From Candidatus Sulfobium sp. (GTDB taxonomy: Bacteria; Nitrospirota; Thermodesulfovibrionia; Thermodesulfovibrionales; UBA6898): a stretch of DNA of 15,826 nt. The position numbers were made by a program, and so were the translations under genes. The DNA lies in contig JARRRI010000034.1 of NCBI GenBank assembly GCA_037380845.1, positions 1 through 15,826 on the forward strand. Reading direction: 5' to 3'. The notes beneath the pieces were generated by a model, which was not told where the DNA came from, made no database searches, and was given only the letters and a program-made list of their open reading frames with translations. Position 1 is the first letter of the stretch. Each line of letters starts with the position of its first letter. This document shows positions 5,802 to 15,826 of the stretch, in pieces.

Positions 5802-7382
5802 TTAAAGACATATATGCTTTACCGAAAGAATATTGGGCAACCCCCTGACCTGTTCCAGTATCTCGGCAGTCGGGGTCGTATCTATACTCACCACCGAAAT
5901 CGCGGTCCCGCCGGCCTTCTCCCTTCCGAAGTGCATCCGGGCGATGTTGATACCGTTTTTCCCCAGGAGGTTTCCGATATTGCCGATCACACCCGGCTTG
6001 TCGTTGTTATACATCAACAGGAGCTCACCCTCAGGCACTATCTCTACCTTGAAGCTATCGATCAGTATAATGCGCGGGTCTTTCTTGCTGAACAGGGTGC
6101 CGGCCACATAACTTTCCCGCGACCCGGCCCTGATCCTCAGCGCGATGACGCTTTGATAGTCCCCTGAATCCTCACTCTTCGTCTCCTTGACCTCTATGCC
6201 GCGCTCCCTGGCGATAAAGGGGGCGTTGACGAAATTGACTGTTTCGAGCAGGATCGGTGTGAGAAACCCCTTGACGGCGGCTATGGTGACCGGCGCGGAG
6301 TTTATCTCGGCCGCGTCCCCGCGGTATTCGATAGTGACTTCGGTGGCGCCCTCCTCCAGTATCTGCGATGAAAAGCCTCCCAGTTTTTCGGCCAGGTTGA
6401 TGTAGGGCTGCAGACGGCGGACCTGGTCGGCCGGAATGGAGGGGAAGTTCACAGCATTCCTGATCGTCCCGTGGACGAGGTAGTCGGCCACCTGCTCGGC
6501 AACCGCCAGTGCAACATTTTCCTGCGCTTCCGTAGTCGATGCCCCGAGGTGAGGCGTGCATATCAGGTTATCGAGTGTCAGAAGCGGGTGGTCAGCGGGC
6601 GGCGGCTCTTTTTCGAATACGTCGATTGCAGCGGCGCCGACCTTGCCTCTTTTAAGGGCTTCGTAAAGGTCTCCCTCGTTTATGATGCCCCCGCGGGCGC
6701 AGTTTATTATTCTTATGCCGTCCTTCATCCTGGCGATGGATTTGGAGTTGATGATACCCTTCGTCTCCGGCGTCAACGGGGTGTGTATGGTGATGAAATC
6801 AGCCTTGGAGAAGAGCTCGTCGAGTGAAACTTTTCTTATGCCGGCCGCGTGTGCGCTTTCCTCACTCAGGAAGGGGTCAAAGGCGATGACGTTCATTTCG
6901 AAGCCCTGCGCCCTCTTTGCCACCTGGCTCCCGATATTGCCGAGACCGAGAACGCCGAGCGTTTTATTGAAAAGCTCCACCCCCATGAATTTCTTCTTTT
7001 CCCACTTCCCTGCCTTCATCGACGCCGTTGCCTCCGGTATAAGCCGCGCGGCGGAAAGGAGCATGGCGAAGGCGTGCTCCGCTGTTGTCACTGTATTGCC
7101 GCCGGGTGTATTCATCACCACGATGCCCTTCTTGGACGCTGCGTTCTTGTCGACGTTGTCGAGGCCCGAGCCGGCCCTGCCGACGACCTTAAGCTTTTCA
7201 GCCGCATCTATTATTTCGGAGGTCACCTTTGTTGCCGACCTTATGATAAGCCCGCTGTATTCCCCTATGCAGGACTTCAGCTCATCGGGGCTCATTCCGG
7301 TCCTGACATCGACTTCCAGTCCGGCATTCTTCAGTATCTCAATACCCTTGGGCGCTATGTTGTCGCTGATCAGAACCTTCAT
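5802..7382 (-). CDS. serA: D-3-phosphoglycerate dehydrogenase (long form with ASB and ACT domains)
   Basis: GRAGSGLDNVD, NTPGGNT, GLGNIG, INCARGG, DVFEKEPP, TPHLGASTTEAQ and C-terminal ACT NDKPGVIGNIGNLLGKNGINIARM; SD GGAGGAGG; ATGA overlap with the upstream gene. Confidence 0.97.
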   Translation of the reverse strand: MKVLISDNIAPKGIEILKNAGLEVDVRTGMSPDELKSCIGEYSGLIIRSATKVTSEIIDAAEKLKVVGRAGSGLDNVDKNAASKKGIVVMNTPGGNTVTTAEHAFAMLLSAARLIPEATASMKAGKWEKKKFMGVELFNKTLGVLGLGNIGSQVAKRAQGFEMNVIAFDPFLSEESAHAAGIRKVSLDELFSKADFITIHTPLTPETKGIINSKSIARMKDGIRIINCARGGIINEGDLYEALKRGKVGAAAIDVFEKEPPPADHPLLTLDNLICTPHLGASTTEAQENVALAVAEQVADYLVHGTIRNAVNFPSIPADQVRRLQPYINLAEKLGGFSSQILEEGATEVTIEYRGDAAEINSAPVTIAAVKGFLTPILLETVNFVNAPFIARERGIEVKETKSEDSGDYQSVIALRIRAGSRESYVAGTLFSKKDPRIILIDSFKVEIVPEGELLLMYNNDKPGVIGNIGNLLGKNGINIARMHFGREKAGGTAISVVSIDTTPTAEILEQVRGLPNILSVKHICL

Positions 7383-8530
7383 GCCTCCTCCCGAACCATC
7401 AACAACTCCTGGGCCGCAGCAACACCCGTGCCGAGTTTCAGGGGGTAACCCAGGCCCTTCAGGACCATTTCCACTCCGGCTATAGCGGTTATCACATCGA
7501 ACGCGCCTGCATAGCCGAGGTGGGCGATCCTGAAGATCTTTCCCTTTGCCTGTCCCTGGCCGCCCGCGGCGGTTATGCCGTATTTCACCCGGAGGTTCTT
7601 GTATATCTCCTGCCCGTCAATCCCCGACGGAGCCTTTATCGCGGTGACGGCGCTGCTCGGAGACTCCTTGGAGAACATCTCAAGGCCGAGGGCCTTTACC
7701 GCCTCCCTGGTGGCCTTCGCGAGTTTTTCATGGCGGGCGACGGCATTTTCAAGCCCCTCCGCCTGCAGGATCTTCAGGCTTTCGTTAAGGCCGATTATAA
7801 GCGTCACGGGCGACGTGAAACTCGTCTGGTTTTTTGCCAGAGACTCGCGCTCCTTGCGGAAGTTGAAGTAGAATTTTGGGGAGGTCGATTTTTCGGCGAA
7901 GGCCCATGCCTTTTCGCTGACGCCGACAAAGGCCAGCCCTGGAGGGAGCATGAGGCCTTTCTGTGATCCGCCTATCATGACGTCTATCCCCCATTCGTCC
8001 ATCCTGAGGTCATGAGCGACGAGGGCGGAGATTGCATCCGCCACCAGAATGGTGTTCTCATATTTCCTCACTATATCGGCGAGTGCCTTGATATCGTGAT
8101 AGACCCCGGTAGATGTCTCCGATGCCTGAACGAAAACCCCTTTTATCGACGGGTCGCGCTGAAGGGCGGCTTCGACTTCGGCGGGTTTGACGGCATAGCC
8201 CCACTCAAGTTTTATTTCCTCTACATCGAGGTTATATGACTTGCAAATTTTCGTCCAGCGTTCGCCGAAATTCCCCCCGTTAACCACGAGGGCCTTGTCG
8301 CCGGGGCTGAAGAAGTTGTTTACGGTCCCGACCATTCCGCCCGTGCCGGTGGAGCATATTATGAGGACGTCATTTTTTGTCTGGTACAGCCATTGCAACC
8401 CCTTCTTTGCCGAATCGAGCACCGGCAGAAAATCGGGAGACCTGTGGTGAATGATGGGCATCGCCATCGCCAAAAGGGCCTCCGGAGGGACAGGGGTCGG
8501 ACCAGGGGCCAACAGATATCGCTTTAACAT
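7379..8530 (-). CDS. Class V PLP aminotransferase (alanine-glyoxylate/serine-pyruvate family), probable phosphoserine aminotransferase
   Basis: LLAPGPTPVP, HHRS, SETSTGV, VADAIS, PLP lysine motif GSQKGLMLPPG and FRIAHLG. Start ATG 8530 follows SD GGAGGT. Confidence 0.9.
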   Translation of the reverse strand: MLKRYLLAPGPTPVPPEALLAMAMPIIHHRSPDFLPVLDSAKKGLQWLYQTKNDVLIICSTGTGGMVGTVNNFFSPGDKALVVNGGNFGERWTKICKSYNLDVEEIKLEWGYAVKPAEVEAALQRDPSIKGVFVQASETSTGVYHDIKALADIVRKYENTILVADAISALVAHDLRMDEWGIDVMIGGSQKGLMLPPGLAFVGVSEKAWAFAEKSTSPKFYFNFRKERESLAKNQTSFTSPVTLIIGLNESLKILQAEGLENAVARHEKLAKATREAVKALGLEMFSKESPSSAVTAIKAPSGIDGQEIYKNLRVKYGITAAGGQGQAKGKIFRIAHLGYAGAFDVITAIAGVEMVLKGLGYPLKLGTGVAAAQELLMVREEA

Positions 8531-8566
8531 CAAAACCTCCTTAATGAAATCAGGGATCAAATTCCC

Positions 8567-8669: not shown

Positions 8670-8699
8670 TTTACAACATCTCAACCAGACTATTATAAT
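8670..8699 (+). promoter_or_regulatory. Putative sigma70 promoter for degP (leaderless or very short leader)
   Basis: TTTACA 8670-8675, N18, TATAAT 8694-8699, 8 nt, then ATG 8708; no SD. Confidence 0.65.
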
Positions 8700-8707
8700 G
8701 AATTAGT

Positions 8708-10177
8708 ATGAAAAATAAAACACTTATCGGGGTTGCGATATTACTTATCGGCTTTCTTCTGGGGGGCGTTTCGTTTTATCTTTTGGGGGAATATACGGGC
8801 GGGCAGAGGATTTATATGCCGGTGGCGCCGCCCCGCATCCCCAAAAAGATGCTCGAAACGGGGAGGGCTTTTTCCGATATAGTAAGGTCCGTTTCGCCGG
8901 CGGTAGTGAATATTTCAAGCACTAAGACCGTGCGGAGAGACGTCAACCCCTTTTTTGACGACCCTTTCTTCGATTTCCTTAATCCCTTCAGGGATTTTAA
9001 GACGCCGAGAAAATGGAAGGAGCAGAGCCTGGGCTCAGGGGTCATTGTTTCCAGTGACGGCTTTATCCTGACAAACAACCATGTTGTAGAGCATGCCGAC
9101 GAGGTTGCGGTCACTCTCTCCGACAACCGGTCCTTCAAGGCAAGGATTATCGGTACCGATCCGAAGACCGACGTGGCGGTGATCAAGATAAACGGCAGGG
9201 GCCTTCCCGCCGTCCGCTGGGGAGACTCCGACAAACTTCAGGTCGGGGAATTTGTCCTTGCCATCGGGAGTCCTTACGGGTTGAACAATACTGTCACCAT
9301 GGGAATCATCAGCGCCGTGGGCAGGGCAAATGTCGGCATAGCGGATTATGAGGATTTCATCCAGACGGATGCCGCGATAAACCCCGGCAATTCCGGGGGC
9401 CCCCTCGTAAATATTGAGGGAGAGATGATCGGGATCAATACCGCTATTTTTTCCCGTTCGGGCGGTTATCAGGGAATCGGGTTTGCGGTTCCCAGCAATA
9501 TGGCGCACCTCGTGATGAAGCAGCTTGAGAAGACGGGCAAGGTGACGCGGGGATGGCTCGGGGTCACAATCCAGGAGCTTACCCCGGAACTTTCCGGCAA
9601 GTTCGGGGCCGACAATTCGAGCGGCGCGCTCGTGGGAGACGTGATGAAGGGAAGCCCCGCCGAAAGGGCCGGCATACGAAGGGGAGACATCATCACCGAA
9701 TATGACGGAAGAAAAGTGAAGGATGTGGGAAGTTTGAGGAATATGGTCGCGGAGAGCCCCGTCGGCGCTACGGTGCCGGTCATGGTCATGAGGGGCGGCA
9801 AGGAATACAGACTCAAGGTAAGGATAGCGGAACTCCCCGCGGAGGTTGCCGAGGCAGCGCCGGCAGAAGGCAGAGGCGAGTACTCGGCCAGAGGGCTGCC
9901 GGGCCTGAGTGTGGTCGAACTTACAGGAGAAATAGGCAAACAGCTGGGCCTTGGAAAAGGAGAGAGGGGAGTGGTCGTGGTGAAAGTGGAACCGGGAAGC
10001 AGTTCGGGAGAGGCCGGGCTGCGGAAGGGAGACGTGATACAGGAAATAGACAGGAAGAAAGTGACCGGCCTTGAGAGGTATAACGAGATCGTGTCGGCCC
10101 TGAGTCCGGGTGAAACCGTCCTTCTTTTTATCAATAGGGGGGGAAAGAAGTTCTACGCAGCTTTGAGGGTGTCCTAG
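8708..10177 (+). CDS. degP: DegP/DegQ (HtrA, Do-family) serine protease with two PDZ domains
   Basis: N-terminal hydrophobic anchor; GSGVIVS; catalytic triad LTNNHVV / DVAVIK / TDAAINPGNSGGPL; PDZ1 begins RGWLGVTIQ; PDZ2 contains AGLRKGDVIQEID. Confidence 0.95.
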   Translation: MKNKTLIGVAILLIGFLLGGVSFYLLGEYTGGQRIYMPVAPPRIPKKMLETGRAFSDIVRSVSPAVVNISSTKTVRRDVNPFFDDPFFDFLNPFRDFKTPRKWKEQSLGSGVIVSSDGFILTNNHVVEHADEVAVTLSDNRSFKARIIGTDPKTDVAVIKINGRGLPAVRWGDSDKLQVGEFVLAIGSPYGLNNTVTMGIISAVGRANVGIADYEDFIQTDAAINPGNSGGPLVNIEGEMIGINTAIFSRSGGYQGIGFAVPSNMAHLVMKQLEKTGKVTRGWLGVTIQELTPELSGKFGADNSSGALVGDVMKGSPAERAGIRRGDIITEYDGRKVKDVGSLRNMVAESPVGATVPVMVMRGGKEYRLKVRIAELPAEVAEAAPAEGRGEYSARGLPGLSVVELTGEIGKQLGLGKGERGVVVVKVEPGSSSGEAGLRKGDVIQEIDRKKVTGLERYNEIVSALSPGETVLLFINRGGKKFYAALRVS

Positions 10178-10260
10178 CCGTCTGAAACGGCCGTCTCCTC
10201 CATCTTGTCGGCCGGATTTACCACTCTCTTCAGAGAGGCGTATGAAAGGAGGTGAAAACC

Positions 10261-11271
10261 ATGGTGATGATATTCAAAATGACGGTGTTTTTTCTTTTTT
10301 CCGCCGCCGGATACCTGTTGGGTCTTCAATATGGAAACGGAATCCTTGGGATAGTATGTGGAATGATTTTGGGAATTATCACTACTTATGCCGACAGCGC
10401 CCTGAAAAAAGTCAATTTCGGGACGATTATCGGCGGAATAGCGGGATTGGCGGCAGGGCTGGTTTTCGCGGAGCTCTTCCTTGTCCCGATCAGACTTCTC
10501 ATCGGAGCTGAAATACCGGCTGTTTCATTTGTCCTGAAAGGTGTCTTCGGTTACGGCGGTCTTCTGATCGGATTGAGTCGGGGGAAGAGCATCACCGTCC
10601 ACGGTATTTTCAGACTTCTTCAGGGAAACGGCTTTGAAGAGAACCTCAAGATTCTGGATACAAGCGTCATCATCGACGGACGGATCGCGGATGTGTGCGA
10701 GGCCGGCTTCATCGAAGGGACCTTTATCGTCCCGCAGTTCATCCTGCAGGAACTACAGTATATCGCCGATTCGCAGGATGCGACAAAGAGGGCCCGGGGG
10801 AGAAGGGGGCTCGATGTACTGCACCGGATCCAAAAGATGTCGAATATAAACGTCAGGATAATCGACGAGGATTTTCCGAAGATCAGGGAGGTCGATTCGA
10901 AGCTGGTAGCACTGGGCAAAATGATGAATGCCAAGGTAATAACGAACGATTTTAATCTTAATAAGGTTGCCCAGCTTCAGGGGGTTTCGGTCCTGAATAT
11001 AAATGAACTCGCCAATTCGCTGAAGCCCGTCGTCCTTCCCGGTGAGACTATGAGGGTCTTTGTCCTCAAGGAGGGGAAGGAGTACAATCAGGGGGTCGCA
11101 TATCTCGACGACGGCACGATGGTGGTGGTAGAGAACGGTCGGAAAATAATAGGCAAAAACGCGGAGGTGATCGTTACCAGCGTGCTCCAGACCACTGCCG
11201 GCAGGATGATATTTTCGAAGCCGAAGGAAGAATCCGAGAAGGAGGAATTCAGGACGGTCGGCAAGGGGTAG
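10261..11271 (+). CDS. yacL: Membrane-bound PIN/TRAM domain protein (YacL family, putative RNase)
   Basis: About four N-terminal TM helices; PIN motifs ILDTSVIIDGRI, ELQYIADS, RGRRGLDVL and TNDFNLNKVA; TRAM GKEYNQGVAYLDDGTMVVVENG. Start ATG 10261 follows the strong SD AAAGGAGGTGA. Confidence 0.93.
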   Translation: MVMIFKMTVFFLFSAAGYLLGLQYGNGILGIVCGMILGIITTYADSALKKVNFGTIIGGIAGLAAGLVFAELFLVPIRLLIGAEIPAVSFVLKGVFGYGGLLIGLSRGKSITVHGIFRLLQGNGFEENLKILDTSVIIDGRIADVCEAGFIEGTFIVPQFILQELQYIADSQDATKRARGRRGLDVLHRIQKMSNINVRIIDEDFPKIREVDSKLVALGKMMNAKVITNDFNLNKVAQLQGVSVLNINELANSLKPVVLPGETMRVFVLKEGKEYNQGVAYLDDGTMVVVENGRKIIGKNAEVIVTSVLQTTAGRMIFSKPKEESEKEEFRTVGKG

Positions 11272-11472: not shown

Positions 11473-11502
11473 TCCCTGCCCGGACTTGGCGGGGATTTTA
11501 TT
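11473..11502 (+). terminator. Intrinsic terminator-like hairpin about 30 nt upstream of ispD
   Basis: TCCCTGCC-cggactt-GGCGGGGA followed by TTTTATT. Confidence 0.55.
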
Positions 11503-11533
11503 AATGCAGGGCTTATATGCGCGAGGTGAAGGG

Positions 11534-12232
11534 GTGAGAGAGAGAGTAACAGCCATCGTCCCTGCCGCGGGAGTGGGCAAGAGATTCGGAGACGGCACAA
11601 ACAAACCTTTCGAGATGCTGGGCGACAGGCCCCTTTTACTGTGGGCGGTGGAAACACTCGGCAGCCTGGAGGAGATTACGGAGATCATACCGGTCGTCAA
11701 GGAAGATCACATGGAATTTGTCGCCGAATTGTTTGAGCGCTACAATGTCCGGAAGGTGAAGCGGGTGGCGCCGGGCGGCCGGGAAAGGCAGGAATCGGTA
11801 CTCCACGGGCTCAATCTGGTCGAAGACAGTAAGTCTTTTGTGCTCGTACACGACGGCGTAAGGCCGCTCATAGAGCCGCATATTGTTCTTTATGCATTGA
11901 GGGAGCTGAAGAATTGCGACGGTGTTGTGGTGGGAGTTCCCGCGAAAGATACGATCAAGGAAGTCACGGACGGTTTTGTCACGAGGACCCTGCGGCGTGA
12001 TGTCCTCTGGGCGGTGCAAACGCCCCAGGTGTTCCGCTATGGGACGCTCCGGCAGGCCTATGAAAAAGCGGCCGTTGAGGGCTTTTCTTCGACTGATGAT
12101 TCCGCGCTCGTCGAGCGCTACGGGGGCAGGGTGAAGGTGGTCATGGGTTCCTACGCTAACATCAAGATTACGACTCCCGGAGACCTGAGCATCGCCGAGC
12201 AGTTCCTCAGGATGAGAGTGAAAAAGGCATGA
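11534..12232 (+). CDS. ispD: 2-C-methyl-D-erythritol 4-phosphate cytidylyltransferase
   Basis: AIVPAAGVGKRFG..NKPF, GGRERQESV, LVHDGVRPL, VQTPQVF, TDDSALVE and NIKITTPGDL. Start GTG 11534 follows SD GAGGTG; the ORF-track start at 11486 lies inside the terminator hairpin. Confidence 0.96.
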   Translation: MRERVTAIVPAAGVGKRFGDGTNKPFEMLGDRPLLLWAVETLGSLEEITEIIPVVKEDHMEFVAELFERYNVRKVKRVAPGGRERQESVLHGLNLVEDSKSFVLVHDGVRPLIEPHIVLYALRELKNCDGVVVGVPAKDTIKEVTDGFVTRTLRRDVLWAVQTPQVFRYGTLRQAYEKAAVEGFSSTDDSALVERYGGRVKVVMGSYANIKITTPGDLSIAEQFLRMRVKKA

Positions 12233-12699
12233 GGGTGGGTTTTGGATATGACTCCCACCGGTTTGCCGGCGGGAGGAGACTCGTCATAGGAGGAGTGGAA
12301 ATCCCTCACGAAACAGGCCTGCTGGGCCATTCCGACGCGGATGTGTTGTGCCACGCCATAACCGATGCCGTCCTGGGCGCCCTTGGGCTTGGAGACATCG
12401 GAAAGCATTTCCCCGACTCCGATCCGAAATGGAAGGACGCCGCGAGTACCGGACTTCTTAAGACCTCGGTAGATCTGGCAAGGACCACTGGTTATGCCAT
12501 AAGCTGGGTGGATTCGACTGTCGTTGCAGAGAGTCCCCGGCTTGCGCCATACATAGAGCAAATGAAAACCGCGCTTTCACAGGCCGGCATTGAACAGGGG
12601 GCGATAAACATAAAGGCGAAGACAAACGAGGGGATGGGCTTTATAGGCAGGGGTGAAGGCATCGCGGCCTTCGCGGTATGCGTGCTGAGCCGGGTCTGA
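12229..12699 (+). CDS. ispF: 2-C-methyl-D-erythritol 2,4-cyclodiphosphate synthase
   Basis: MRVGFGYDSHRF, GHSDADVLCHAITDAVLGA, GDIGKHFPD and IKAKTNEGMGFIGRGEGIAA; ATGA overlap with ispD. Confidence 0.97.
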   Translation: MRVGFGYDSHRFAGGRRLVIGGVEIPHETGLLGHSDADVLCHAITDAVLGALGLGDIGKHFPDSDPKWKDAASTGLLKTSVDLARTTGYAISWVDSTVVAESPRLAPYIEQMKTALSQAGIEQGAINIKAKTNEGMGFIGRGEGIAAFAVCVLSRV

Positions 12700-12703
12700 G
12701 ACT

Positions 12704-12730
12704 AGCTCTTTTATAAGAGCTTTCCTTTAT
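12704..12730 (+). terminator. Putative intrinsic terminator of ispDF
   Basis: AGCTCTT-ttat-AAGAGCT followed by TTCCTTTAT, 4 nt after the ispF stop; the stem is AT-rich and weak. Confidence 0.45.
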
Positions 12731-12911
12731 CTGAAAAGCTCCTAAAGCAGGGTAGAATGACAGGAGATTCGATTGCAACTTTACGTCGAATGAGGACAGT
12801 TTCTCCACCCCCGCAGGCCCGGTGATATTTGGCGGCGCGGGAAGCGGCATGGTCACTGTAGAGAATCTGATTATAGAATGATAGGCTGGGTCTTTAAGAA
12901 GTAAGTTGAAA

Positions 12912-13325
12912 TCAGGAGGTTTCTGAATTCTTCAGTATCTCCTCTATCGCCTCTTCCGCAATCATCCTCACATTGAGATTTTCATCCGTCAGCGCTTTTT
13001 CAAGGAAAGGGATTACACCCTCGCTACCGGCGATCCCCAGGAGATTAGCGGCATCGCCCCGCACAGAGTCTTCCTTGTGTTCAAGAAGCGGCACTAAAGG
13101 CGCAACGGCCCTGAAAATATTGTTGCCGTCCCTCACTTTCAGCTCCTCCATCATGGCCGTCACCCCCACCCGCACCCTTACCCTCTCATCCTGAATCAAT
13201 TCACCCACGAGGCCGTAAAGGTTGCTGTCATGACGGAACATGTCGATTATATTTTCGAGAAAGCCGGCCTCCATGTGGTCTGCGATCAGCGACCTGAGGT
13301 CATAGCTGCGTTCCGCTTCAGTCAT
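12912..13325 (-). CDS. HEAT-repeat (PBS-lyase-like) small helical protein
   Basis: Three HEAT-like units: LIQDERVRVRVGVTAMM, LLEHKEDSVRGDAANLLG and ALTDENLNVRMIAEEAI. Start placed at ATG 13325, 8 nt below an extended -10. Confidence 0.8.
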   Translation of the reverse strand: MTEAERSYDLRSLIADHMEAGFLENIIDMFRHDSNLYGLVGELIQDERVRVRVGVTAMMEELKVRDGNNIFRAVAPLVPLLEHKEDSVRGDAANLLGIAGSEGVIPFLEKALTDENLNVRMIAEEAIEEILKNSETS

Positions 13326-13333
13326 ATACTTTA

Positions 13334-13342
13334 ATGATAACA
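13334..13342 (-). promoter_or_regulatory. Putative extended -10 promoter for the HEAT gene
   Basis: On the - strand: TG-T-TATCAT, 8 nt, then ATG; no SD. Confidence 0.5.
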
Positions 13343-13543
13343 CGGGTGAAGTGTGCCGAGGTGTACCGGACCTGGACAGTTTTTCGAATTGCCGGCCGCG
13401 CTATCGGAATGTCGTTTGTCGTAATTCGGGCCGTAACGGCCCTCCGTGGAGACTCACTACGAGATCCCGACTGCCGAGGGTATTCGGGAGTGCGGAGTGA
13501 CGGCGTTTCAGCCGATCTGGCAATATACCAGCCTCCTTTGTTG

Positions 13544-13549
13544 TATAAT
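13544..13549 (+). promoter_or_regulatory. Consensus -10 box for cysE-cysS-rlmB
   Basis: TATAAT 13 nt upstream of ATG 13563; no SD; no clear -35. Confidence 0.5.
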
Positions 13550-13562
13550 AAGCATTAAATCA

Positions 13563-15689
13563 ATGGGTTTCTGGGGGAACATAAGGCGGGACTACAGGGC
13601 TGTTTTCGAGAGAGACCCTGCCGCCAGAAGCGCTCTGGAAGTTTTTCTGGCGTATCCGGGTTTTCATGCCATATGCATGCACAGGGTCAACCATGTGCTC
13701 TGGAAAGCCCGGATTCCGGCGCTGCCGAGGCTCTTCTCTCATCTGGCGCGCTTCCTGACCGGAATTGAGATCCATCCGGCGGCCAGGATCGGGCCGGGTT
13801 TTTTTGTCGACCACGGGATGGGGACGGTTATAGGGGAGACGGCCGAAACTGGAACGGATTGCCTGCTTTACCAGGGGGTTACGCTCGGGGGAACGGGAAA
13901 GGAGAAGGGAAAGCGCCATCCCACGCTCGGAAACAATGTCGTGGTGGGTGCCGGCGCGAAAATCCTTGGGGCCATAACGATCGGCAATAATGTTATTATA
14001 GGTGCCAATTCGGTGGTCCTGAAGCCTGTCCCGGACAATGCCATCTGTGTCGGAGTTCCGGGCAGGATCACCAAAAAGAAGATAATCAGGATGACGACCG
14101 AAGAGGGGTTGGTGGAGGTAATGGACCATTTTCCCGACCCCACTACCGAAAAAATTATGGAATTGGAGGCCAGACTCAACGAGGCGGTCAAGAGGCTTGA
14201 TGCCGTTGAAAGGACCGGGGGAAGAGGAGGACGGATGAGAATATATAATACCCTTACCGGAAGGAAGGACGAATTTGTCCCCACGGACCCTTCGCATGTC
14301 AGGATGTATTCCTGCGGCATTACCGCATATGATCACTGCCACATCGGACACGCCCGGAGCGCCATCGTATTCGATGTGATGCGGAGATACATAAAATTCA
14401 AGGGCTACAACGTCCTTTATGTGAGAAATTTTACCGACATCGACGATAAGATCATCAACAGGGCCGGGCAGGAAGGTATTGCCTGGGACGCCGTGGCCCG
14501 GAAATATATAGACGAGTATTACGACGATATGGACAACCTGGGCGTCGGCAGGGCGGATGTCGAGCCCAGGGCCACGGAATACATACAGGAGATGATCGAC
14601 CTCGTGAAGGGGCTGGTCGAAAAGGGGTTCGCATACGAAGTGGACGGGAATGTCTTTTTCGAGGTTGCGAAGTTTTCCGGATACGGCAAACTCTCAAAGA
14701 GAGATCTCAATGAGATGATGGCGGGGGCCCGGGTCGGGGTCGACGAGAGGAAGAGAAACCCGATGGACTTTGCCCTCTGGAAGGCGTCCAAAGAAGGCGA
14801 GCCGGCATGGGAAAGTCCCTGGGGACCCGGAAGGCCCGGCTGGCATATCGAGTGCTCGGCCATGTCCCTGAAGCAGCTGGGGGAGACCTTCGATATCCAC
14901 GGCGGGGGCGCAGACCTTATCTTCCCCCATCATGAAAATGAGATTGCCCAGTCGGAAGCCTTTACGGGGAAGCCGTTCGTAAACTACTGGGTACACAACG
15001 GGTTTATTACCGTCGACAAGGAGAAGATGTCGAAGTCACTCGGCAATTTCTTTACCATCAAGGAGATACTGAACAAGTTTGACGCCGAGGTGGTCCGCTT
15101 CTTCCTCCTCTCAACACATTACAGGAGCCCCATTGAATTTTCGGATGAGCAGCTGCGCGAGGCCGAGGCGTCCATCGACAGATATTATGCAACCAGGGCG
15201 AGGATGACGGACATCCTGTCGCGTGATAACCGGGCAGAAAAACAGGTCCCGGAGGAAAAGGCCCTCGAAGGGTTGCTCCAGACTTTTTATCCCGGCTTCT
15301 CTGAAGCCATGGACGACGATTTTAATACCGCCCTGGCCATTGGCCATATCTTCGAGCTGATACGGGTGCTGAACAAGTATATGGACGGGGGACCTTCCGG
15401 AAAGAAGACCGTCGAACTGTTGCGGAAGTCGGGTGAAGCACTGGAAAGGGCGGGCGGCGTACTTAACATCTTTCGGCGCACACCGGAAGAGTGGCAGCGG
15501 GCCCTCATGAAGACGAGAAAAATCGGGTTAAGCGAGGAAGACATTATCTACAAAATAGAGGAGCGGCGGAAGGCAAGGGAGGCGAAGGACTGGGCTTCGG
15601 CCGACAGAATAAGAAACGAACTCGAGGAAAAAGGGATCATTCTTGAAGACAAGAAGAGCGGAACCGGGTGGAAAGTCAAGACCCCATGA
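13563..15689 (+). CDS. cysE-cysS: Fused serine O-acetyltransferase (CysE, aa 1-224) and cysteine--tRNA ligase (CysS), 708 aa as sequenced
   Basis: CysE motifs [55 protein letters not shown] and VGVPGR. No stop before CysS motifs [52 protein letters not shown] and KMSKS. The ORF-track start 13446 lies upstream of the TATAAT box and was rejected. Confidence 0.9.
14235..15689 (+). CDS. cysS: Cysteine--tRNA ligase, probable internal in-frame translation start (484 aa)
   Basis: SD GAGGAGG at 14224-14230 followed by ATG 14235, which gives the canonical CysRS N-terminus [14 protein letters not shown]. Confidence 0.8.
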
Positions 15690-15826
15690 AGAATGGATTT
15701 ACGGTCTGAACCCTGTCCTTGAAGCGATACGGTCGGGACGAAAAATAAAGTCGGTCGTAATATCCACATCGAGAAAAGAAAAAGTCCCGGAGATTGAAGG
15801 GGAAAGCGCGTTTCGCGGAATACCCG
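15643..15826 (+). CDS. rlmB: 23S rRNA (guanosine-2'-O)-methyltransferase RlmB/TrmH family, 5' part, truncated by the window end
   Basis: The frame at 15688 reads [26 protein letters not shown].., matching the IYGxNPVxEA N-terminus of RlmB; rlmB commonly follows cysS. The only in-frame start after TAA 15610-15612 is TTG 15643, preceded by AAGGGA. Confidence 0.75.

Follow-up and report, generated by a model that had tools for sequence, protein, structure and literature searches.

The window analysed here is the whole of a 15,826 nucleotide (nt) stretch of DNA, contig JARRRI010000034.1 of Candidatus Sulfobium sp. (GenBank assembly GCA_037380845.1), from the class Thermodesulfovibrionia of the phylum Nitrospirota. 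It contains a fused cysE-cysS gene (13563..15689, + strand; 708 codons and a TGA). This is very probably a genuine bifunctional gene that joins an active short-type serine O-acetyltransferase (SAT, the product of cysE) and a complete cysteinyl-tRNA synthetase (CysRS, the product of cysS) on one polypeptide, and that is both the only cysE and the only full-length cysS of its genome. The SAT half would catalyse the committed step of cysteine synthesis, the formation of O-acetylserine. A covalent link between an aminoacyl-tRNA synthetase and the committed enzyme for its own amino acid is unusual, and this one has long been kept across a class of sulfur-cycling Nitrospirota, in some genomes as the cell's only CysRS. 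The novelty is the architecture, a single polypeptide; the component enzymes are ordinary. As a whole, the explanation developed here, of a real and conserved bifunctional SAT-CysRS gene together with its inferred origin and expression, is one in which we have good confidence.

Translation of the window gives a single uninterrupted frame at 13563-15689 (+), with 708 residues, then the TGA, and zero internal stops. Upstream of 13563 the frame stays open to a GTG at 13446, but the 67 aligned orthologues all start with MGF... at the equivalent of 13563 and not at the further-upstream GTG. The SAT catalytic module (residues 1-168; 13563..14066, +) is recognised by the NCBIfam cysE model TIGR01172, in which residues 7-168 match positions 1-162 of 162 with 236.4 bits, above the curated cut-off of 210.65. 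Pfam places Hexapep, the hexapeptide repeats of the left-handed beta-helix, on residues 119-153. The SATase_N family is matched at model positions 72-103 of 105 only, so this CysE is of the short type, without most of the N-terminal helical domain of the E. coli-type SAT. The CysRS module (residues 225-708; 14235..15686, +) matches the NCBIfam cysS model TIGR00435 (residues 225-705, model positions 1-465 of 466; 580.1 bits, curated cut-off 340). Pfam tRNA-synt_1e, DALR_2 (residues 579-637) and CysS_C (666-703) are also found in this half, so that the anticodon-binding C-terminal domain is present.

For each half there is an enzyme of solved structure with which its whole catalytic length can be aligned. 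E. coli CysRS (1li5/1u0b) aligns end to end with the CysRS half (1li5 chain residues 2-460; 484 bits), and its HIGH, KMSKS and zinc-ligand Cys, His and Glu positions are matched there. The HIGH motif occupies residues 260-263 (14340..14351, +) and the KMSKS motif residues 488-492 (15024..15038, +), both evident in the sequence itself as well as in the orthologue columns. H. influenzae SAT (1ssq) aligns with the CysE half (147.5 bits), the DH and RH positions coinciding. Unlike the fusion, the solved enzymes are separate proteins, and the alignment to 1ssq begins only at chain residue 80 (80-242), which reflects the missing helical domain. An initial annotation, made from the letters of the sequence, had described a complete CysE and a complete CysRS in one frame with HIGH, KMSKS and the zinc ligands intact; translation, family models and structure alignments bear out the first part, and the second agrees with columns that are invariant or at least 90% conserved in the 67 orthologues.

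Is the join itself real? Three sequencing runs of a study distinct from the probable source provide contigs over 13829-14261, 13809-14374 and 14120-14300, none of which shows a difference or a gap. No RNA run was listed among those in which this DNA occurs. The possibility of an indel or stop at the junction had been raised in the initial annotation, and these independent contigs match the junction exactly. In a library of 5.8 billion clustered proteins, the best 120 matches considered are all 685-724 amino acids long, with 97-100% query cover and 73-90% identity. The homologues that the initial annotation had proposed to count by BLASTP in related genomes are therefore abundant in their full-length fused form, in 120 of the 120 best matches and, as described below, in 59 of 85 genomes of the class. 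Among the source names of the matches are 'Cysteine--tRNA ligase (modular protein) [Candidatus Sulfobium mesophilum]', several entries from Nitrospirae or Nitrospirota metagenome-assembled genomes and, from JGI, 'cysteinyl-tRNA synthetase/serine O-acetyltransferase'. Most of the genes are named only 'cysteine--tRNA ligase', which hides these genomes' only cysE in pathway reconstructions. No paper describing a CysE-CysRS fusion was found in a full-text literature search, and the fusion appears unstudied, though the protein is already present in public databases under automatically assigned names.

The fusion is conserved and lineage-specific, a trait found across one class of Nitrospirota. Of the 41 nearest relatives, 33 have the full fused gene (one with an internal TAG and one cut at the contig start), 3 have pieces at contig ends (confirmed for G002 and G003), and 5 have an unfused cysS. 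A sample of the phylum comprised 301 genomes, 85 from the window's class and 216 from elsewhere in Nitrospirota, and was tallied by hand from the table of matches. The fused gene is present in 59 of the 85 class genomes: the window's own, 5 of 5 in the same family, 44 of 70 in the same order and 9 of 9 in other orders. Of these 59, two are truncated by contig ends and one has a TAG as codon 563. The remaining class genomes have a CysS-sized match only (25 genomes) or no match (1 genome). A match spanning both halves was found in 0 of the 216 genomes from the remainder of the phylum. Two genomes of another class, G045 and G063, have long open frames before cysS that were considered as fusions and rejected, there being no CysE match at either locus; in G045 the frame merely continues from the upstream ispF. 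Among 1.84 billion representatives clustered at 50% identity, one of the best 150 matches is fused (P0122, 711 amino acids), and nine other long CysRS representatives (576-1253 amino acids) were rejected as fusions because none has Hexapep. In the ESM Atlas, the fused clusters seen hold Nitrospirota members only.

Conservation within the 67 orthologues points to function in both halves. In CysE, all sequences have D83, H84, R118 and H119, D18 reaches at least 90% conservation, and the RDPA region is invariant or nearly so; D83/H84 and R118/H119 are positions that we take to be the catalytic Asp-His and the substrate-binding Arg-His of SAT. In CysRS, the invariant residues are C251, H260, G262, H263, C431, H456, E460, K488, M489, K491 and S492, with S490 conserved to at least 90%. 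Of these, C251, C431, H456 and E460 align with the matching residues of 1li5, which by E. coli numbering we take to be the Cys, Cys, His and Glu zinc ligands of the cysteine-binding pocket. With catalytic and zinc-binding columns invariant, both halves are evidently under purifying selection. The window's genome, which is rated 100% complete, has two cysK/cysM genes; in it, no cysE match other than the fused gene exceeds the cut-off, nor is there a second full-length cysS. Further evidence comes from five genomes in which the codon at the junction between the halves is not a start codon (ATC, ATC, ATA, CTT and CTG). In each of these, nothing but the fused gene passes the cut-off for the cysS family: G257 and G060 yield no further match, the further ones in G289 and G321 reach only 43-47 bits, and the additional paralogue in G211 is without the anticodon domain. 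In such genomes the fused polypeptide must be a working CysRS.

The two halves are joined by a Gly/Arg linker, GGRGGR (residues 219-224; 14217..14234, +), located from the translation and the orthologue junctions. Within it lies the sequence GGAGG (14226..14230, +), 4 nt before an internal in-frame ATG (14235..14237, +). This ATG encodes Met225, which aligns with residue 2 of E. coli CysRS and is presumably the ancestral cysS start, and the GGAGG is a candidate for the old cysS ribosome-binding site on the grounds of its enrichment, its codon bias and the layout of unfused relatives. Across 74 fused genes the junction codon is ATG in 59, GTG in 6, TTG in 2 and a non-start codon in 7. In 39 of the 59 genes with a junction ATG, GGAGG falls at -16..-3 relative to it; among the other in-frame ATGs of these genes, 29 of 1072 are preceded in this way. 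Positions -3 and -2 are Gly-Gly in 50 of the 74 genes, and the former residue is encoded by GGA in 43, GGG in 4, GGT in 3 and GGC in 0, although the other 4323 Gly codons of the fused genes are GGC in 40.5% and GGA in 22.5% of cases. Codon choice is less constrained for the Gly at position -5 (GGA in 11 of 26). The stand-alone cysS genes of family f10, which are nested among the fused genes in the tree described below, have GGAGG, 4-5 nt and ATG as their own start region. From this pattern of codons and motifs, we conclude that selection appears to act on the RNA sequence of the linker.

What would such selection maintain? On balance we favour the reading that the linker still acts as a ribosome-binding site, in this genome and in most others, and that the gene would give two products, the fusion of about 80 kDa and a free CysRS of about 55 kDa starting at Met225. 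Where the junction ATG has decayed, the fusion alone would serve. Words resembling a Shine-Dalgarno (SD) sequence accompany start-capable junctions in 50 of 67 cases and non-start junctions in 2 of 7; these are raw counts with only 3 phylogenetically independent pairs behind them.

It is quite possible, if short of probable, that only the fusion protein is made and no free CysRS, the GGAGG and ATG being inert relics or kept for another purpose. Several observations weigh on that side. The 7 of 74 orthologues with a non-start junction codon live with the fusion alone, the SD-like word is missing from 17 of the 67 start-capable junctions, and a spacer of 4 nt is short for initiation. The GGAGG could also be kept as a Gly-Gly hinge with a preference for purine-rich codons, or as a site of translational pausing. 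A hinge would not need the wobble base of the first linker Gly to be A in 43 of 50 genes and never C when GGC is the commonest Gly codon, however, and in the free-standing cysS genes that lie among the fused ones in the tree, the GGAGG, 4-5 nt, ATG arrangement serves as a real ribosome-binding site. These two points incline us to the production of both the fusion and a free CysRS.

A perfect -10 hexamer, TATAAT (13544..13549, +), is seen in the sequence 13 nt before the start codon, with no Shine-Dalgarno sequence between them. Of 72 usable orthologues, 53 have a perfect TATAAT in the 26 nt preceding the start, whereas only 6 of 216 control windows from further upstream contain one. With -10-like hexamers of at least 5 of 6 matches allowed, 63 of 74 orthologues have one that ends 1-18 nt upstream of the start (6-8 nt in 28 and 9-14 nt in 30). 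With a -10 box so placed the mRNA would be leaderless or nearly so, leaving no room for a T-box. It is likely, judging from this spacing and its conservation, that transcription begins at the start codon or a few bases before it, and hence that no leader RNA, whether T-box or riboswitch, regulates the gene. An Rfam scan of 12600-15826 at E values up to 1 found no T-box or other family, in line with the initial annotation, which had seen no T-box; its sole row is a sub-threshold match to a snoRNA model (16.5 bits, E 0.29).

Starts of this kind may be a recurring feature of the genome. The htrA start (8708; in 8690-8710) has a TATAAT 9 nt upstream and no Shine-Dalgarno sequence, unlike serA, purA and the aminotransferase gene of the same window, which have clear GGAGG-type sites. 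A crude genome-wide count found TATAAT beside start candidates in 78 of 3464 long open reading frames, against about 48 by a rough estimate of chance.

Between the SAT catalytic module and the linker lies the CysE tail (14124..14210, +), consisting of DHFPDP (residues 188-193) and a helix with heptad-spaced hydrophobic residues (194-216), defined by column statistics of the 67 orthologues. Positions 198, 201, 205, 208, 212 and 215, a 3-4-3-4-3 spacing, are hydrophobic in 82-100% of these sequences, and the linker after the helix is 4-9 residues long. The tail is likely a coiled coil; the initial annotation had spoken of a DHFPDP/coiled-coil tail, and the heptad pattern holds across the orthologues. 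The trimeric beta-helix is the known fold of the CysE family. Given the heptad tail, a CysE oligomer carrying several CysRS modules is a reasonable inference. By analogy with that fold, we consider it reasonably probable that the CysE beta-helix would trimerise, that the tail would form a stalk holding three CysRS modules on tethers of 4-9 residues, and that the two active sites would work independently. The protein is a natural case in which to see how a synthetase that is usually monomeric functions on an oligomeric scaffold.

An oligomeric CysE scaffold bearing another enzyme of cysteine metabolism is familiar from the cysteine synthase complex of enterobacteria and plants, in which the free CysE C-terminus, ending in Ile, enters the active site of CysK, and CysK/CysM genes are present in the genome studied here. 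In the fusion, by contrast, the CysE C-terminus runs on into CysRS, and the partner is a tRNA synthetase rather than CysK. The initial annotation had proposed that the fusion masks a CysK-docking C-terminus, a proposal that the relatives do not support. All 14 free-standing short-type CysE relatives examined share the DH..PDP-plus-helix tail with the fusion, yet they end in different ways, a single one of them in Ile; in two split relatives, CysE ends in K or T. With ends so variable and Ile so rare, there is no sign of a docking tail that could have been lost. On this comparison the tail is apparently an inherited feature of the family and not a CysK-docking peptide masked by the fusion.

The fusion would probably be of benefit by locking together the expression of cysteine supply and of cysteine charging. 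As the CysK step comes between the two, channelling of substrate is unlikely. A more elaborate possibility is that the halves are functionally coupled, so that tRNA-Cys or cysteine bound at one module alters the other and the fusion senses charging and tunes cysteine synthesis, a protein-level counterpart of the Firmicute T-box; the suggestion in the initial annotation that the fusion might replace T-box control is speculative. The lack of a leader RNA and of room for one, the short linker of conserved length (4-9 residues) and the retention of the fusion throughout a whole class speak for coupling of this sort. Nothing shows contact between the domains, however, and at least four lineages have split the gene or lost the CysE half with no visible compensation. 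Co-expression alone accounts for retention, and the likely internal start would also give uncoupled CysRS. We therefore regard coupling as improbable. Equally doubtful is the fullest version of the idea, a dual-output unit in which a leaderless start would give the SAT-CysRS fusion and the internal site free CysRS, and in which the fusion would sense tRNA-Cys or cysteine through its CysRS half and adjust O-acetylserine synthesis. If true, such a unit would be the protein-level equivalent of T-box control in a lineage without leader RNA. The gene is also a natural test of whether any kinetic or regulatory effect follows from tethering supply to charging.

It is very unlikely that the CysE half is a regulatory or scaffold domain without catalysis, cysteine being made by another route. 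The relatives of family f10 have cysS alone, with no cysE match at the thresholds used, which suggests that CysE is dispensable in some members of the class. Against this, the CysE half scores above the curated cysE cut-off, keeps D83, H84, R118, H119 and the RDPA region with little or no variation over the 67 sequences, and is the only cysE in a genome whose two cysK/cysM genes need O-acetylserine. An active SAT remains our reading of this half.

When did the fusion arise, and has it been undone? For a tree of the CysRS part, sequences were gathered from 74 fused genes, 3 split-adjacent cysS, 14 stand-alone cysS and 6 outgroup cysS, giving 97 rows that were analysed by maximum likelihood with a quick search and SH-aLRT support. 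Fragments at contig ends (G002, G003, G014, G017, G219 and G296) were omitted. The class forms one clade (SH-aLRT 99), and non-fused genes are nested among the fused ones in four places: in an 8-row group (support 95), a 25-row group (96), a sister pair (99) and a 6-row group (95). The fused or non-fused state requires a minimum of 5 changes on this tree, which fits one gain and four losses, that is, one old fusion followed by about four fissions. A junction motif, LEG(K/R)GG(R/K)M, recurs in the major subclades, and this also fits a single origin.

The split state is illustrated by sister genomes of the same order (genus g18: G026, G038 and G166), in which orthologous cysE and cysS genes are adjacent, the CysE and CysRS proteins being 52% and 62% identical to the halves encoded in the window and the CysE tail being the same as in the fusion. 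They differ in yielding two proteins through translational coupling: in G026 and G038 the end of cysE and the beginning of cysS overlap in an ATGA. The fused and split states would thus differ by a shift of frame at the junction, and in the tree the split genes are nested among fused ones. We suggest that the fusion would have arisen once, in the ancestor of the class, from an adjacent and translationally coupled cysE-cysS pair, and that it would later have been undone about four times. The gene is likewise a natural test of how a fusion can retain an internal start and so stay a single mutation from fission. In one genome, G302, both forms are found: a fused gene (C14:20242-22362) and a separate cysS of 497 amino acids (C19:1728-3182) that is 71% identical to the CysRS half in the window. 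In the tree this separate cysS lies within the 6-row non-fused group, beside the stand-alone cysS of family f12.

An artefact of assembly or sequencing that lost a base or stop codon between two ordinary genes might be suspected in a metagenome-derived assembly of 104 contigs, with split relatives that differ from the fused form merely by a frame shift at the ATGA overlap and with two CysE-sized database proteins (P0272 and P0274) that track the fused sequence up to the linker, but it is already refuted by the exact junction in contigs of an independent study, by the same open frame in 59 of 85 class genomes and by 120 of 120 best database matches that are full-length fused proteins.

The two CysE-sized proteins, P0272 (225 amino acids) and P0274 (226 amino acids), are 81% and 71% identical to the CysE half in the window and end a few unrelated residues past the linker, as a frame shift at the junction would yield. 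They may be recent natural fissions or assembly errors. Two in-frame stops weigh against an intact gene in every fused genome. In the closest relative (G001:C77, locus L003), AAG has become TAG at codon 154, a conserved Lys of the CysE half, and in G236 (G236:C5, locus L060) a TAG is found at codon 563, in a variable stretch of the CysRS half. A common pattern for the two was considered and rejected, as one affects a conserved Lys codon and the other a variable stretch; they may be sequencing errors or real decay. If the stop in G001 is real, this genome would rely on the internal start for its CysRS.

The other genes of the window begin with an mltD-like gene (34-1263), followed in order by genes for a TPR protein and a PHP phosphatase, comF, a PilZ-like gene and purA. 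Next are serA (5802-7382, -) and a gene for a class V aminotransferase (7379-8560, -), then htrA (8708-10177), a PIN/TRAM-like gene (10252-11271), ispD and ispF (11486-12699) and, between ispF and the fusion, a small gene (12912-13343, -). Downstream of the fusion, the N-terminus of a SpoU-type methyltransferase (SpoU_sub_bind) begins at 15694. The serA and aminotransferase genes (5802-8560, minus strand) are a possible serine route about 5 kb from the serine-consuming fusion gene, with no operon link to it because they are on the opposite strand.

The order ispD-ispF ... cysE-cysS-methyltransferase resembles that of the Bacillus cluster. As in the T-box-controlled cysES operon of Firmicutes, both genes are in the same order and on the same strand and the CysE is of the short type; a SpoU/TrmH-type methyltransferase gene lies downstream, and ispD-ispF lie upstream of the fusion. 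The differences are that one polypeptide is encoded here and not two, that there is no T-box and no room for a leader, that no gltX precedes the fusion, and that the small opposite-strand gene (12912-13343) parts ispF from cysE. The operon layout in Bacillus methanolicus is given in Table 5 of PMC4342826, and according to the conclusion of PMC2940859, cysteine T-boxes are found mainly upstream of cysS or cysES in other Firmicutes.

The genome also has other components related to cysteine charging. A second CysRS-like protein of 408 amino acids (G000:C22, locus L002 1513-2739, +) has HIGN and KMSKS motifs and matches positions 1-400 of 466 of the cysS model with 293 bits, under the cut-off of 340; it is without the anticodon-binding end. 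Paralogues like it occur in about 10 of 40 relatives searched. It resembles the 'cysS*' without an anticodon-binding domain (ABD-less) that Mukai et al. describe in Desulfobacterales (PMC5389517). A 94-nt tRNA-Cys(GCA) is encoded at G000:C62:31154-31247 (locus L108 1501-1594, +) and scores 47.3 bits with the tRNA-Sec model, for which the cut-off is 47; it looks like the selC*-type tRNA-Cys of PMC5389517. The same genome has a normal 76-nt tRNA-Cys (C4:63444-63519) and a true selC (C31). Near-full-length BLAST matches to the 94-nt tRNA-Cys were found in 9 of the 40 relatives, with no clear co-occurrence with the CysRS-like paralogue.

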